DNA of 10,410 bases from a virus (IMGVR_UViG_648276647_000014); one strand, 5' to 3'. Counted from the first letter of the stretch, positions 1,485 through 7,121 are shown. Numbers and translations: made by a program. The notes: generated from the letters alone by a model not told the origin.

Positions 1485-2014
1485 GTGAAGGTTAACAAAA
1501 AGAAACTAGCTGAGATTTTTGAGCGCGATGTCAGAACAATTATTGGCTGGCAAAGTCAGGGGCTGAGGGTTTTGCCGGGAGGAGGCAAAGGTGTTGATGT
1601 TCAATTCTGCAGAAGCCATTGTGTGGCATGCGCAGCGGGAAAAAGATATCGAAAACGAAAAGCTCCGTAAAGAGCTGGAAGATTTGCGTGCGGCTGCAGA
1701 ATCTTGGCACCATTGACTATCGCTACTGGCTCACAAAAGCACAGGCTGACGCACAGGAGCTGAAAAATACCCGCGAAGAAGGACTGGTGCTGGAAACGGA
1801 ATTGTTTACCTTCATTCTGCAACGTGTGGCACAGGAGATTTTGGGGATACTTGTGCGTGTGCCTCTGACATTACAGCGTAAATATCCGGATATTTCACCG
1901 TCACACCTTGATGTGGTGAAAACTGAAATCGCAAAAGCCTCCAATGTTGCAGCTAAAGCTAGTGAGAACGTAGGCGGGTGGATTGATGATTTCAGACGTA
2001 CAGAAGGCAGTTAA
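1485..2014 (+). pseudogene. Terminase small subunit (lambda Nu1 / NohA-like) disrupted by two frameshifts
   Basis: Three consecutive frames each match lambda Nu1: about 1485-1600 ([29 protein letters not shown]), 1600-1716 ([28 protein letters not shown]) and about 1700-2014 ([21 protein letters not shown]...). A GTG or upstream ATG start is possible. Confidence 0.8.
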
Positions 2015-2247
2015 TGCAGCCGGTGCGATAGCTACAGGGCTTGTATCTTTCAATATTCCGGTACCATTGACGACAGTTCAGTAGGCTGATCAGCATTATT
2101 ATCTGCCGAAAGAGTCTTCATATACCCCCGGGCAATGGGAAACACTGCCGTTTCAGGTTGCCATCATGAACAGTATGGGAAATGACCGGATCCGTACCGT
2201 TAATCTGATTAAATCGGCGCGTGTTGGTTACACCAAAATGCTGTTGG
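1986..2247 (+). pseudogene. Terminase large subunit (lambda gpA-like), N-terminal fragment with an in-frame TAG and truncated by an IS insertion
   Basis: ATG at 1986 overlaps the Nu1 end as in lambda. Translation ..ADQHYYLPKESSYTPGQWETLPFQVAIMNSMGNDRIRTVNLIKSARVGYTKMLLG matches the gpA N-terminus. TAG at 2082-2084 sits where lambda has Trp. Homology stops at about 2247, where the IS110-family element begins. Confidence 0.75.
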
Positions 2248-3690
2248 GGGGGACCCTATTAAGTTGTCAAGCATGTTTATTACACCTGCGGGGTATAAAA
2301 AGTACCGTCACGCATCATGGCGAACAGAATGTCGCAGCGCCGTCTTGCCAGGGCGATAAGCGCCTGGTTGTGTCGTTTCCCCTGGCTCATTTTGCGTGTG
2401 TAGTAAGCCCTGGATATCGGAGCTCTGAGCGCGGCGAAGGCGGACAGGAACAGCGCCCGTTTGAGGCGTTTATTGCCCCGTCGCGAGGGATGTTCCCCAC
2501 GTATGGATGAGCCGGAGCGTCGGGTTACCGGCGCAAGGCCTGCATAAGCAGCAAGATGTGCGGCAGAGGCGAAGGCCCGACAGGCAACCTCTGTGAGGAG
2601 TCTGGCTGCGGTCCTGACACCGACTCCGGGCATGCTGGTCAGGACCGGGTAAAGAGGGTGAGCAAGAACCCGTTGCTCTACCTCAAGAGCCACTTCGTCT
2701 CTTTGCTTACGCAGCGTGATGAGCTGGAGTGCCAGGCGTGGGAGAACAACGACAGCAGCATTCGGACCGGGGACGATGACGGTTTGCTGTGTCAGTGCCT
2801 GGGTGATATCTGCAGCAAGGCGTTTTCCCTGACGGGGCGCGAGTTTGCAGAGCTGGGTTGCCAGTTTTTTCTCACCCAGTAAAGCGAGTTTTTCGGGTGA
2901 GGGATATCGCTGGAGAAGATCAAGTACTGCTGGATGATCCAGTCGCGGGCCGAGAACGCGCTCCAGAGCCGGATGTATCTGGGTCAACAAGCCGCGGATG
3001 CGGTTGCTGGCCTGTGTTGTCTGTGCGGCAAGATCATCATCGAAGCCGCAAAGCATGGAGAGTTCGGCGATTTGTTCGTCGGCCAGTTTTAGAGAGCGAA
3101 GAGCATGAGGCAGAGTACGTGCAGCTTCGGCAATGATGGCCGCATCACGGGCATCGGTTTTGGCTTCACCGGAGTGCAAGTCGGCGATGCGTCGCATTGC
3201 CAGTCCTGGAAGGTATCCGACAAGGACGCCTTCAGAGCGGGCAACGGCGACGGGTAACGCCCCGATGGTAGCAGGCTGGTCAACGACCAGTAGTATCTGT
3301 CCATGCTGTTTCAGGTCAGATATCAGCGCTTTGAGTTTGTTTTCGTCGTTGGGTAATGCTCTGTCGAACAAACGTTTACCTGAACGATTAACGGCAACGG
3401 CGTGATGGGTGTCTTTACCTACATCAACGCCAATAACGACCTGGATTGATTCGTAATCGCTGGATTCGGTCATTGTGTCTCCCTGTTTATACGGGGTAAC
3501 CAGATAACCTTGGGGAGCAGGTACCGGCATCCACGTTACAGACGGTCCCGATATGATGTCTGACCTGGCCCCTATCAGCGGTTACCAGCGCCCCACCAGA
3601 CCCGGTGACATCACCCCCCGGATCATGGACGACTGGGGGAGGTAATCATGTCGGGGCTGGCTAACACCCCATTATAAGGGGTACGAATAA
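2248..3690 (-). mobile_element. IS110-family insertion sequence (IS110-group organisation: long 5' non-coding leader, transposase, very short 3' end), inserted in the gpA terminase gene
   Basis: Bounded by gpA-homologous sequence on both sides (N-terminal fragment ends about 2247; gpA C-terminal-region homology resumes about 3691). Contains a single DEDD-type transposase gene. Boundaries are approximate to within about 10 bp; no terminal inverted repeats are expected for this family. Confidence 0.75.
2280..3473 (-). CDS. IS110-family (DEDD) transposase, apparently intact, 397 aa
   Basis: N-terminal IGVDVGKDTHHAVAV motif and C-terminal YAGLAPVTRRSGSS motif are typical of IS110-family transposases. 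The six-frame ORF extends to 3530, but the ATG at 3471-3473 is preceded by AGGGAGA 6 nt upstream, so I take that as the start. Confidence 0.85.
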   Translation of the reverse strand: MTESSDYESIQVVIGVDVGKDTHHAVAVNRSGKRLFDRALPNDENKLKALISDLKQHGQILLVVDQPATIGALPVAVARSEGVLVGYLPGLAMRRIADLHSGEAKTDARDAAIIAEAARTLPHALRSLKLADEQIAELSMLCGFDDDLAAQTTQASNRIRGLLTQIHPALERVLGPRLDHPAVLDLLQRYPSPEKLALLGEKKLATQLCKLAPRQGKRLAADITQALTQQTVIVPGPNAAVVVLPRLALQLITLRKQRDEVALEVEQRVLAHPLYPVLTSMPGVGVRTAARLLTEVACRAFASAAHLAAYAGLAPVTRRSGSSIRGEHPSRRGNKRLKRALFLSAFAALRAPISRAYYTRKMSQGKRHNQALIALARRRCDILFAMMRDGTFYTPQV

Positions 3691-4060
3691 AGTAACGGGG
3701 GGTATCTGACGGCGGACATTGACTCGCAGCGAAACCGTTTTGAGATGTATGTCTGGGGATGGGCTCCGGGAGAGGAAGCCTTTCTGGTGGATAAAATCAT
3801 CATTATGGGGCGTCCTGATGAGGAAGAGACGCTGTTACGTGTGGATGCGGCGATCAACAAAAAATACTGCCATGCAGACGGAACCGAAATGACCATTTCC
3901 TGTGTCTGCTGGGACATCGGGGGTATCGATGGTGAAATCGTGTATCAGAGATCAAAAAACACGGTGTTTTTCGGGTATTGCCGATAAAGGGGACGTCTGT
4001 CTATGGCAAGCCGGTGATCACTATGCCGAAAAAGCGCAATCAGCGCGGCGTGTATCTTGG
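3691..4060 (+). pseudogene. Terminase large subunit (gpA-like), C-terminal-region fragment, frameshifted, fused by deletion to J
   Basis: Translation GYLTADIDSQRNRFEMYVWGWAPGEEAFLVDKIIIMGRPDEEETLLRVDAAINK...[17 protein letters not shown] matches lambda gpA (..YLTAGIDSQ..RYEMRVWGWGPGEE..IMGRHD..CWDTGGIDPTIVYERSK). A frameshift near 3960 is followed by [33 protein letters not shown], still gpA-like; homology then switches to J. Confidence 0.7.
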
Positions 4061-4640
4061 TACGGCGCTGTACTGGATAGCCGCCAGTATCAATATCAGG
4101 CCGGGCCATGATTATTATTTTTATATCCGTCGTGTGAACACTGTTGGCAAATCGGCATTCGTGGAGGCTGTTGGTCAGCCGAGTAATGATGCGGCCGACT
4201 ATCTGAATTTTTATAAGGGGTTGATCAATAAAACGCATCTCGGCAAGGAGCTGCTGGAAAACTTTGAGCTGACGGAGGATAACGCCAGCAGACTGGAGCA
4301 ATTTTCGGAAGAGTGGAAAGACGCCAGTGATAAATGGAATGCTATGTGGGGCGTCAAAATTGAGCAGACCAGAGACGGCAAACGGGAATGAAACGCCGAT
4401 GTTTGTGGCGCAGGGCAACCAGATATTCATGAACGACGTGTTCCTGAAACGCCGGACGGGCGGCTTTCTGCAAAAAATGCGGATATCAGTGGCAGTGTGA
4501 ATGCGAACTCGGAGACGCCCAACAACGTCACGATAAATGAGAGCTGTACGATTAAGGGCATGCTGGAGGCGAACCAGGTCAGGGGTGACTTCGTTAAGGC
4601 TGTCTCTAAACCATTCCCGAAAAGGACCGGAACGAGGGGA
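4061..4640 (+). pseudogene. Tail tip / host specificity protein J fragments (central and C-terminal regions) with an internal deletion and frameshifts
   Basis: [34 protein letters not shown]...[39 protein letters not shown], then in other frames [21 protein letters not shown] and [26 protein letters not shown].., all matching lambda J as recalled. The segment is a few hundred bp, whereas intact J is over 1100 codons. Confidence 0.7.
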
Positions 4641-4758
4641 GGCTGGCGTGCAGTTTAACCCGACCGGAACCGTGGCCATTGATATTGCTTATGAAGGTTC
4701 CGGCAGTGGCGACTGGCGCACAGACGGTTTCATCGTGGGTGTCGGTTATAAATTCTGA
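4641..4758 (+). pseudogene. C-terminal remnant of a Lom/Ail-family outer-membrane beta-barrel protein fused to the J remnant
   Basis: Translation ends ..AIDIAYEGSGSGDWRTDGFIVGVGYKF-stop. The terminal GVGY(K/R)F and alternating-hydrophobic pattern are characteristic of Ail/Lom/OmpX-family C-terminal strands, and lom follows J in lambda. The exact junction is uncertain. Confidence 0.45.
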
Positions 4759-4784
4759 TTAGCCAGGTAACACAGTGTTATGAC

Positions 4785-4811
4785 AGCCCGCCGGTTCAGG
4801 CGGGCTTTTTT
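4785..4811 (+). terminator. Rho-independent terminator (8-bp GC-rich stem AGCCCGCC/GGCGGGCT, 6-nt loop, T6)
   Basis: Perfect stem 4785-4792 / 4799-4806 followed by TTTTTT, 27 bp after the lom-like stop codon. Confidence 0.65.
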
Positions 4812-5230
4812 GTGGTGTGCCGGGCATGCTCAGCAGCTCGGGGGTGAAAGTCCCCTGTCCAGCCTGATGGTGGCGAAGGACTAGTGAAGTGCAAGGGTGT
4901 CGTCGTGAGGCGGGATCTGAAGGAAGCGTGGAGCAAAACCATGACCTGACGAACAGAAATCCGATATGAGGCCTACCCGGCTGGCGGAGCAATCCATTGA
5001 TTGCAAAGGCCATAACCATCAAGAGCCGGGGTGGTAGATTGGGCAGGTGTGTGGTGAAAGCGGCTGAGCTTACCCCGGGAGGCCTGTCCGGCGTTCTGTA
5101 TTCAGAACTGAGCGTACCGTAAGGTGCGCTGACCGGCGGACAGGAGTCAGCAGAGGGCATAGTAGGACAGGCGCGTCTGAAGGCCCGAACGGTAATGAGT
5201 GACGAGTATCAGCGGAGGTTCTGAACGGTC

Positions 5231-6576
5231 ATGCAGCAGAAAACGCATCGCGACCCTGATGCAGGAAGACGGGGTGAAGCCCCTGACGCCGGTTCTCAGG
5301 GGGCTGAAACCGTGCAGGCACCGACGACCAGAGAAAGTCCATCGTCAACAGTGTGGCTGATGGAAGCCATCTGCGAACCAGTCAACCTCAGGCATGCCCT
5401 GAAAAGAGTGAAGGCCAATAAAGGTGCGGCGGGAGCCGACGGCATGAGCGTAAGCGAACTGCCGGAGCACCTGAAACGCCACTGGCCGGAACTGAAAGCG
5501 CAACTGCTGTCCGGCAGCTACCGCCCATCCCCTGTAAGAAGAGTGACTATCCCGAAGCCCGGCGGCGGCGAACGCCTGTTGGGCATCCCGACGGTGGTGG
5601 ACCGCTTTATCCAGCAGGCGATGATGCAGGTGTTGCAGGCACAGTGGGATGCGACGTTCAGCGACAGCAGCTACGGGTTCCGGCCCGGACGCTCGGCGCA
5701 TCAGGCAGTGAAGCAGGCTCAGAGATACATCGAGTCGGGCTACAGCTGGGTGGTTGACCTCGATCTGGAAAAGTTCTTCGATCGGGTGAATCACGATGTA
5801 CTGATGAGCCGGATAGCGAAACGAGTATCGGATAAACGGGTGCTGTCGCTTATCCGCAGGTACCTGAATGCAGGTGTGATGGAAGCGGGTCTGGTAATGC
5901 CGGTGACAGAAGGGACGCCGCAGGGCGGCCCACTGTCGCCACTGTTATCGAATCTGCTGCTGGATGACTTCGATAAGGAACTTGAGAAACGCGGCCTGAA
6001 GTTCGCCCGCTACGCAGACGACTGTAATGTGTATGTGAAGAGTGAACGGGCAGGCAACCGTGTGATGGCGGGGCTGACGCACCGGCTGAACCGGAAACTG
6101 AAGCTGAAGGTCAACGCGAAGAAGAGCGCGGTAGCGCATCCGGAGACGCGTAAGTTCCTGGGTTACAGCTTCAGGAGGGGCAGAAAGGTGTGGTGTCGCC
6201 GGAATCGGTGAAGCGGTTCAAAACCCGGATAAGAGAACTGACGGGGCGTAACACGGGCAGAAGCCTGGAGCAGCTTATCGAACCGTTAAAGCGATATCTG
6301 ACGGGATGGAAAAGCTACTATAGACTGAACCAGTGGCAAACGCTGATGAGAGATCTGAACAGGTGGATAAGGCGAAGGTTGCGAAGTGTCCTGTGGAAAC
6401 AGTGGAAAACGGGCAGCAAGCGCTTCAAAGAGTTGCGCAGACGGGGAGTAAGCAAAGACCTTGCAGCGCAAACGGTAGGGAGTTGCCATAAGCAATGGCG
6501 GATAAGCTGTAGTCCGGCACTGAGCATAGCACTTCCCAATCGCCTGTTCGTCAGACTGGGCCTACCGGAGTTATAG
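5231..6576 (+). pseudogene. Group II intron-encoded reverse transcriptase/maturase, split by a single frameshift between the RT and maturase (X) domains
   Basis: RT motifs are present (..PKPGGGERLLGIPTVVDRF.., SYGFRPGRSAHQAV, TPQGGPLSPLLSNLLL, YADDCNVYV). The frame ends at 6211 (..FLGYSFRRGRKVWCRRNR-stop). The maturase domain continues in another frame from about 6172 (..VVSPESVKRFKTRIRELTGRN..LTGWKSYYRLNQ..) to TAG at 6574-6576. The frameshift lies about 6172-6190 and could be genuine or a sequencing error. Confidence 0.8.
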
Positions 6577-6600
6577 GCAGGCGACGATAAACATAACCGA

Positions 6601-6672
6601 ACCGCCGTATACGGACCCGTATGTACGGTGGTGTGGGAGGAGGCTGATCGTGAGATCAGCCCCTATCCCGAT
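6601..6672 (+). ncRNA. Group II intron domain V-like and domain VI-like hairpins (3' end of intron RNA)
   Basis: Domain V candidate 6601-6632: 9-bp lower helix (ACCGCCGUA / UACGGUGGU), 2-nt bulge on the 3' strand, 4-bp upper helix, tetraloop GACC. Domain VI candidate 6635-6669: GCUGAUC-GUGA-GAUCAGC with an extended stem and a bulged A at 6665. Folded by hand, so the register may be off by a few nt. Confidence 0.5.
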
Positions 6673-6699
6673 CACAGAAAACCCCCCGCCATTCTGGAT

Positions 6700-7020
6700 A
6701 TGCTGGACCATTTTTTATGGCGGGTACACGAACCTTTTGATTTTTATCTCAGTGATGATAGCAGCGAGGTGATTGAGGTTCCCGCCGGTTTTGTTACAGA
6801 CCATGCTACGGTTCCGCGTATTTTCTGGATGATACTGCCACCTGATGGCAGATATGCCAAAGCGGCCATTATTCATGACTGGCTGTACGACAATGCGTTG
6901 CGTACCCGACAGGAAGCCGACCGGATATTCTTGGACGGAATGAAGGTACTGGGAGTGCCGCGCCGGAGGCGGATGGTTATGTACGGTGCGGTAAGACTGT
7001 TTGGGCGGGGCAAATACTGA
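6700..7020 (+). CDS. DUF1353-like phage protein (107 aa)
   Basis: Motifs ..PAGFVTDHATVPRIFW.. and ..AAIIHDWLY..R..ADRIF..GMKVLGV..R...MYGAVRLFG resemble the phage-associated DUF1353 family as I recall it. The six-frame ORF starts at 6628 inside the intron 3' domains, so I take the first ATG after the intron (6700) as the start. Confidence 0.55.
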   Translation: MLDHFLWRVHEPFDFYLSDDSSEVIEVPAGFVTDHATVPRIFWMILPPDGRYAKAAIIHDWLYDNALRTRQEADRIFLDGMKVLGVPRRRRMVMYGAVRLFGRGKY

Positions 7021-7024
7021 AAAA

Positions 7025-7054
7025 AGCCCCCGGCCACTGGCCATGCCGGGGGCT
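7025..7054. terminator. GC-rich hairpin (AGCCCCCGGC / GCCGGGGGCT, 10-nt loop) flanked by A-run upstream; possible bidirectional terminator
   Basis: 10-bp perfect stem directly after the stop of the DUF1353-like gene. The plus strand lacks a clean U-run downstream, while the minus strand has T5 after the stem. Confidence 0.45.
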
Positions 7055-7086
7055 GCTCGCTCTTAAGGATATCACTTAGTTAAGTC

Positions 7087-7121
7087 GAAACGCCCAGACG
7101 GACCGCACCACAGGGCGTTTC
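7087..7121. other. Hairpin with 9-bp stem GAAACGCCC / GGGCGTTTC and 17-nt loop
   Basis: Perfect inverted repeat seen directly. A second hairpin with the same GAAAC...GTTTC framing lies at 7623-7656. Confidence 0.4.

Follow-up and report, generated by a model that had tools for sequence, protein, structure and literature searches.

The group II introns of class C (IIC) can be recognised by a small set of hallmarks, namely a CGC catalytic triad, a domain V whose distal stem is shorter by 2 base pairs (bp), an 11-nucleotide (nt) bulge with the motif AGGAA, and a pairing of 3-4 bp between intron-binding site 1 (IBS1) of the 5' exon and exon-binding site 1 (EBS1) of the intron (PMC1702495). Experiments with B.h.I1 of Bacillus halodurans placed insertion 3-11 nt downstream of a terminator stem-loop (PMC1702495), and the enterobacterial introns Di.ze.I1 and So.gl.I1 are also sited after Rho-independent terminators, with conserved IBS1 and IBS3 (PMC3522654). 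The same survey lists no class C intron for Escherichia or Shigella (PMC3522654). A further group, the IIC-attC introns, has the attC sites of integrons as its targets, and its members can carry outward promoters (PMC3001079). The subject of the present analysis is a 10,410-nt stretch of viral DNA, IMGVR_UViG_648276647_000014 (hereafter "the window", from whose first letter all positions are counted), in which positions 4815-6672 very probably constitute a bacterial class C group II intron in which one unit of a tandem heptamer has been lost and the reverse transcriptase (RT)/maturase gene thereby broken. A class C-like intron directly behind an intrinsic terminator, with an RT/maturase gene in two frames, had been proposed for 4785-6672 from a reading of the bare sequence (here called the original prediction), and the fate of its individual claims is given below together with the results that bear on them.

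The limits of the intron were set by aligning the window with independent copies, from Escherichia coli plasmids and a prophage and from Klebsiella and Providencia plasmids, and by comparing the flanks. Similarity to seven independent copies begins at G4815, in a GTGTG motif, and stops at T6672/C6673, C6673 being common to the closest copies. The intron opens with GTGTGCCGGGCATGC, three bases past the T-run of the terminator, and ends in ...GAU, of which the last two bases, AU at 6671-6672, fit the AY end consensus; intact relatives are 1865 nt long. The 3' boundary of the original prediction, 6672, was thereby borne out, and its 5' boundary, 4785, has to be moved to 4815 because 4785-4814 is 5' exon.

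Three Rfam models recognise the ribozyme. RF02001 matches 4899-5069 over its full length (131.9 bits, E = 1e-27, model positions 1-170 of 170) and RF01998 matches 5109-5185, likewise in full (53.7 bits, model positions 1-84 of 84), both above their gathering scores, while RF00029, which describes domains V and VI, matches 6600-6672, again in full, with 42.6 bits against a gathering score of 40. The protein open reading frame (ORF) sits between the first two matches and domain V, as expected for domain IV, and the 5' ribozyme region in front of it measures 416 nt (4815-5230), close to the approximately 420 nt that had been foreseen; such a small size is a further mark of IIC introns (PMC1702495). 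Domains V and VI fold with -41 kcal/mol (z = -5.9), and five pairs of domain VI show compensatory changes in relatives; the conserved domain V on which the proposal depended is thus present on folding. Its C6603-G6604-C6605 is aligned to the AGC of the Rfam model, so that the CGC that had been remarked upon as a possible oddity of a hand alignment is real, and it is the documented triad of IIC introns (PMC1702495). The distal stem of domain V shows a 4-nt gap relative to the Rfam consensus, that is, it is 2 bp shorter and 3 bp remain, and the segment AUCUGAAGGAA occupies 11 unpaired columns of the RF02001 alignment. By sequence comparison, every IIC hallmark tested is present, in agreement with the class that had been suggested.

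Among these features, the strongest support in sequence terms is the covariation of EBS1 with IBS1. The 3-nt motif in the EBS1 loop covaries with the final three bases of the 5' exon across four EBS1/IBS1 types: introns with EBS1 CAU follow an exon that ends in GUG in the window and in AUG at three other insertion sites, those with AAG follow CUU, those with AUG follow CAU or UAU, and those with AAA(G) follow (C)UUU, one type having 4 bp. In the window, the pairing of CAU with GUG amounts to 3 bp, with a G-U wobble at -3.

The preference for terminators was assessed on 13 independent insertion sites of the lineage, drawn from E. coli, Klebsiella, Providencia, Serratia and IMG/VR viral contigs, a terminator being counted where a hairpin of -10 kcal/mol or lower was accompanied by at least six T in the last 12 nt upstream. 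This combination was found at all sites but one (12/13), as against 1.3% of 1950 positions drawn at random from these loci. Terminator adjacency, in the same orientation as the terminator, thus goes with the element itself and is not accidental; boundaries in homologues do coincide with terminators, as the original prediction had implied. Upstream of -3, the 13 sites share only the T-run and a hairpin of unrelated sequence, which is consistent with a stem-loop at the position of IBS2.

In the window itself, the strong hairpin and T-run that had been called at 4785-4811 are indeed there. The terminator scan gives a stem of 8 pairs, 7 of them G-C, around a 6-nt loop at 4785-4806, which folds with -18.2 kcal/mol (z = -3.5; none of 200 shuffled sequences was as stable) and is followed by T6 at 4806-4811. 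This stem-loop holds the position that IBS2 has in IIA and IIB introns, and lies 8 nt from the intron, the T-run lying 3 nt from it. It belongs to the truncated phage gene lom upstream of the intron, and the identical terminator sequence is found 3' of lom in about 200 records of lambdoid and Stx phages.

The 3' flank of the intron has another origin. The native phage sequence 3' of the lom terminator is GGGTGAATATGG, the start of a tail fibre gene, with G as its +1 base. In the window, 6673-6686 is identical to the left end of the insertion sequence (IS) IS200C (L004, 2680-2693), which in other E. coli has landed behind this very terminator; about 14 nt of IS200 are all that is left here, and the intron is located precisely at the junction of lom terminator and IS200. 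An artificial empty site, in which 4515-4814 was joined to 6673-6972, served as query against complete E. coli genomes and against phages and plasmids. An effective empty site is present in E. coli DCE7 and numerous further genomes, where CACAGAAAACCCCC follows the end of the lom terminator, ...TTTTTTGTG (terminator-GTG), without any gap: the DCE7-type match spans the artificial junction (query 122-317, or -179 to +17, with 96.9% identity), and only the alleles that bear IS200 extend past it, by 14-17 nt. As for the +1 base, it is C in the three EBS1-CAU copies whose 3' junction was read (the window, L001/L018 and L002) and in L019, and T in L007, L008 and L012. Since the +1 C of the window comes from IS200, insertion of the intron probably postdates the arrival of IS200 beside the lom terminator.

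The gene carried by the intron is split, as had been stated for its RT and X domains, into an RT ORF (5231-6211) and a maturase ORF (6190-6576) that lies in the -1 frame relative to it. Re-insertion of 7 nt restores a protein of 450 amino acids, whose Pfam domains are RVT_1 (107-313) and GIIM (329-407) only; the Pfam search of the repaired protein revealed no endonuclease domain, another point on which the earlier reading was correct. Compared with TIGR04416, the model for group II intron RT/maturases, it scores 436.9 bits (cut-off 300), so that the RT is of the group II intron type that had been assumed. Its best solved relatives are the GsI-IIC RT (6ar1; E = 5.7e-141 over residues 43-448) and 7uim (E = 1.2e-107), whereas the full-length intron proteins LtrA (5g2x) and 6me0, which are here taken to be IIA and IIB enzymes, reach about 1e-37 to 1e-39, some 100 orders weaker than the IIC enzymes. 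An identity as a class C intron RT/maturase is supported by this best-match similarity.

The frameshift arises because one GTGTGGT unit is missing. Intact copies read AAG GTGTGGT GTGTGGT GTC, and in alignment the window is exactly one GTGTGGT short of both the copy on the E. coli plasmid pNORD58_1 (the Nord58 copy) and that in the prophage of E. coli 06-00048. In intact relatives, the two units together encode the conserved KVWCVV, and because homologues in Serratia, Klebsiella and Providencia retain either the two-unit length or the peptide KVWCV(V/I)SPES, the two-unit state is ancestral and it is the window that carries a deletion. An indel had been expected at 6172-6190; there is one, although the heptamer (6188-6194) overlaps only the 3' end of that interval. 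The NCBI assembly GCA_000176555.2 (scaffold GL883905.1) encodes the same truncated ORF of 326 amino acids, according to an exact-protein look-up, and the Logan assembly of run SRR024152, made with a different assembler, is identical to the window over 2370 nt, the single heptamer included. The same one-unit allele is found in plasmid pHH35, a complete plasmid in which it is annotated as "frameshifted", and the match to a second, sister plasmid record is likewise 1872 nt long. Apart from the missing unit, the pHH35 intron agrees with the intact Nord58 copy, whereas some 30 positions separate it from the window, and the heptamer was accordingly lost on at least two occasions.

Would a different identity account for these observations equally well? 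The class C assignment would fall if the intron belonged to a different group II class, if the RT were that of a retron or of a defence system (DRT), or if the terminator lay nearby by chance, and the probability of this is practically nil. RT domains are shared across families, and the protein accordingly gives weak matches to retron and DRT models; these lie far under the respective cut-offs, however, and the ribozyme domains match group II models, the features specific to IIC that were tested are all present, and 12 of the 13 sites are terminator-adjacent with covarying EBS1/IBS1. On their scores, a retron, DRT or Abi RT was rejected (St85, 72 against 235 bits; Drt3a, 63 against 200; Drt2, 61 against 390; AbiA, 22 against 250). 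An IIC-attC intron was rejected as well, the targets being terminator-like hairpins with T-runs and the 13 plasmid and prophage flanks showing no integron context. Several points nevertheless weigh against a class C intron with a broken gene at 4815-6672. An intron-free allele with both the lom terminator and the DUF1353 gene that follows the intron in the window was not found in the complete E. coli genomes, phages and plasmids searched; the EBS3 partner of C6673 was not located, the search for EBS3 covariation giving no clean signal, with few variable positions in the internal loop 4949-4959; the view of the source genome extends over 21 kb, and an intact helper copy may exist elsewhere; splicing and mobility are predicted from the sequence; and, if SRR024152 underlies the NCBI assembly, the two assemblies are non-independent samples.

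This last point touches on the idea that the intron is intact and the 7-nt gap an artefact of sequencing or assembly in a short tandem repeat, which is decidedly unlikely. The lesion does fall within a repeated motif, where aligners or polishers may collapse units, and the NCBI assembly and the Logan contig possibly derive from the same reads, yet the gap is the clean loss of one 7-nt unit and not a homopolymer error, a different assembler reproduces the identical 2370 nt, pHH35, a complete plasmid, has the allele too (the 1872-nt match length being shared by another plasmid), and the window copy bears other signs of decay, such as the change of Trp285 to Arg. Of the two outcomes between which the original prediction had hesitated, a dead protein or a sequencing error, the clean unit loss, the identical second assembly and the recurrence in pHH35 favour a real mutation and disfavour an error; the heptamer was probably lost by replication slippage. 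It is hardly credible that low-level synthesis of the protein persists, by -1 slippage or by re-initiation, with the heptamer as a leaky or reversible switch and not a kill. In favour of such expression, the maturase ORF does lie in the -1 frame relative to the RT ORF, that frame stays open from a TAA some 50 nt before the heptamer as far as the X domain, and the one-unit allele arose at least twice. Ribosomes might slip by -1 on A_AAG (6184-6187), a weak slippery tetranucleotide known in E. coli, downstream of the Shine-Dalgarno-like AGGAGG (6173-6178), to give ...FRRGRK-G-VVSPES..., or they might start again at GTG 6190 to produce a separate maturase fragment. On the other hand, there is neither an X_XXY_YYZ heptamer nor an identified stimulatory structure further downstream; intact copies, too, contain AGGAGG, as coding sequence; the slippage product would be without the conserved VWC; and other copies have been inactivated by unrelated lesions (a 50-nt deletion, split ORFs), which fits plain decay (PMC3522654). 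It is also very improbable that the GTGTGGT pair is a slippage-prone contingency site, or A_AAG a -1 frameshift site, through which RT/maturase and mobility are off and occasionally on.

A real deletion in a decaying class C intron also agrees with the remaining state of the copy. Four substitutions (T4890, T4993, T5352 and C6083) are unique to the window; C6083 changes Trp285, which is conserved in all homologues, to Arg, and U4993 adjoins EBS1, where it would replace an 8-nt loop by a 6-bp stem capped by the loop CAUU. The closest copy, with 99.56% identity, is that of the E. coli 06-00048 prophage (NZ_CP015229.1; L001), which is also present as an IMG/VR contig (L018). In the region L001 6352-6700, this copy keeps both heptamers and has a 50-nt deletion in the maturase domain, and two near-identical copies have thus been inactivated by different lesions; more distant chromosomal copies carry split ORFs. 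A pattern of decay, with an extinction model, has been described for enterobacterial group II introns, including copies with disrupted ORFs on mobile elements (PMC3522654), and the lesions of the window copy fit it. The 21 kb of source scaffold hold a single copy of the intron, which, as judged from its sequence, is most likely immobile unless helped in trans.

When genome contigs were scanned with the first 41 nt of the intron, only Serratia copies matched. In Serratia nevei 9rpt1 (L010, L013, L014), a related intron has at least three insertions, each after a different terminator, and the flanks each end in ...TTTTCTTT, matching the EBS1 AAAG of that intron, which suggests that the Serratia nevei lineage has been recently active.

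A mechanism can be proposed in which the element is a self-splicing ribozyme and retroelement of class C. By analogy with the family, the intron would be transcribed only via read-through of the lom terminator (PMC1702495, PMC4424553), and a DNA target would be recognised via the stem-loop, the 3-bp EBS1-IBS1 pairing (CAU 4995-4997 with GUG 4812-4814) and the single-base IBS3, C6673. An intact protein would bind the RNA, assist it both in splicing and in entering further terminator sites by reverse splicing, and copy the RNA into DNA; since it has no endonuclease, complementary DNA would, as in the family, be primed from the replication fork (PMC1702495, PMC4424553). Loss of the heptamer parts an RT fragment of 326 amino acids from the maturase/DNA-binding part, and the loss of the X and D regions would abolish autonomous help in splicing as well as mobility, so that this copy, its protein gene being broken, could presumably neither splice efficiently nor move alone. 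It would then be carried along passively, in decay, among the prophage and IS remains of a GCA_000176555.2 scaffold, and mobilisation, possible in principle, would require an intact sister protein acting in trans. The coordinates of the features discussed are collected in Table 1.

Table 1. Features of the intron, its insertion site and the neighbouring sequence, in coordinates of the window.
Feature	Position	Strand	Basis or remark
Complete class C (IIC) group II intron, 1858 nt (very probable)	4815-6672	+	Rfam models and flank comparison
5' splice-site consensus GUGUG	4815-4819	+	
11-nt single-stranded bulge AUCUGAAGGAA in the epsilon-prime region	4915-4925	+	AGGAA 4921-4925
EBS1 (CAU), in the loop of hairpin 4989-5004	4995-4997	+	Covariation
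Domain V, 30 nt	6602-6631	+	CGC 6603-6605, G6604-U6629 wobble, AU bulge 6621-6622, 3-bp distal stem
Domain VI with bulged branch-point A6665	6634-6670	+	A6665 is 7 nt from the 3' splice site
Truncated intron-encoded protein: N-terminal extension and RT domains	5231-6211	+	326 amino acids, YADD; ends with 6 out-of-frame codons and a stop
Sole remaining GTGTGGT heptamer	6188-6194	+	Two in tandem in intact copies
Out-of-frame remainder: maturase (X/GIIM) and C-terminal DNA-binding region	6190-6576	+	128 codons
Stem-loop of the lom intrinsic terminator	4785-4806	+	AGCCCGCC-ggttca-GGCGGGCT; terminator scan and folding
Terminator T-run (T6)	4806-4811	+	
IBS1 (GUG), final 3 nt of the 5' exon	4812-4814	+	Pairs with EBS1 CAU
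IS200C left-end remnant, start of the 3' exon	6673-6686	+	14 nt, CACAGAAAACCCCC
First 3' exon base C, presumed IBS3	6673	+	
Predicted ligated exon junction			...UUUUUUGUG / CACAGAAA...
DUF1353 gene in the 3' exon region	6718-7020	+	Pfam match to residues 1-92 counted from ATG 6718
Nu1 fragment	1619-2014		
IS110/ISEc20-like transposase	2280-3530	-	
GpA nuclease fragment	3745-3987		
J Ig-like fragment	3978-4391		Fused by deletion to the lom remnant
lom, last ~60 codons only	4537-4758		

Downstream of the intron, public gene calls start the DUF1353 ORF at GTG 6628, within intron domain V. Because the Pfam match begins at ATG 6718, this start adds 30 N-terminal residues that are artefacts of annotation. 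Behind the gene, at about 7024-7058, lies an inverted repeat that is rich in GC and bordered by A/T runs. Neither a sigma-70-like promoter nor an outward promoter for DUF1353 was found in 4400-7200, and a megablast search of 5,426 complete E. coli genomes gave no match to the segment 6673-7300. The DNA on the other side of the intron, 1619-4758, is a heavily degraded lambdoid prophage. Further along the window, in an island of 36% GC, the minus strand carries an ORF of 322 amino acids (8004-8972), without a match in Pfam or NCBIfam and without a tblastn match in 72,556 plasmids; genes of the IpaB family, of the SLT type and for a YopJ-type acetyltransferase are found at most 10 kb away from it on the source scaffold, for which reason it may be an orphan type III secretion effector. 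An ALIL pseudoknot (RF01497, 108.9 bits), a frameshift stimulator of IS3-family elements, is present at 9639-9755 among fragmentary IS3 transposase ORFs (9409-9684 onward), and the Hfq-binding small RNA isrN (RF01396, 123.8 bits) is encoded on the source scaffold at L015 17787-17923, about 8 kb downstream of the window.

For annotation, 4815-6672 should be given as a IIC group II intron containing an ltrA pseudogene, followed by a DUF1353 gene that starts at 6718, and beyond this correction the locus has little significance. It does exemplify how terminators are targeted, how EBS1 and IBS1 covary inside a single lineage and how different lesions bring near-identical copies of enterobacterial group II introns to decay, and it offers an example of nesting, in which the insertion of IS200 by the terminator supplied the +1 C that the intron target presumably needs.

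Set beside known systems, the intron belongs to the same lineage as those annotated by their ltrA gene on E. coli plasmids of the pAA type (pNORD58_1, NZ_CP139842.1, protein WP_021562748.1) and in the 06-00048 prophage. Over the whole intron, the Nord58 copy has 98.5% and the 06-00048 copy 99.56% nucleotide identity to the window, and both share with it the EBS1 CAU, a hairpin and T-run upstream, and the +1 C; the window copy differs from them in its insertion site, at the junction of lom terminator and IS200, in being one heptamer short with a split protein, and in its four unique substitutions. A name for this intron in the Zimmerly or E.c.I scheme was not found, E.c.I6, E.c.I7 and E.c.I11 appearing in the literature only in unrelated contexts. 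Its start, GUGUGCC.GGCAUGC, is like that of B.h.I1 as given by the B.h.I1 primers (PMC1702495). With B.h.I1 and the introns of the GsI-IIC RT (6ar1) and of 7uim, the window has in common the CGC triad, the shortened domain V and the AGGAA bulge, as well as an IBS1 of 3-4 bp, the lack of an IBS2, a stem-loop 3-11 nt upstream and a protein without endonuclease; it is set apart from these systems by its gammaproteobacterial host, its mobile-element context and the defective state of the copy. The protein has an N-terminal extension of about 42 amino acids beyond the GsI-IIC alignment, and domain II may be larger than in the IIC intron of Oceanobacillus iheyensis. Di.ze.I1 and So.gl.I1 (Leclercq and Cordaux 2012, PMC3522654), enterobacterial class C introns of low copy number, can be likened to it by description, and the IIC-attC introns S.ma.I2 and E.c.I7 have the IIC ribozyme and the endonuclease-less protein in common with the window, whose lineage is unlike them in targeting terminator-like hairpins with T-runs. 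The element is thus known biology, being 98-99.6% identical to RefSeq ltrA introns, typical of its class in behaviour and pseudogenised by a simple deletion, and it is mildly unusual only in the recurrent loss of the heptamer and in its nesting at the IS200/terminator junction.

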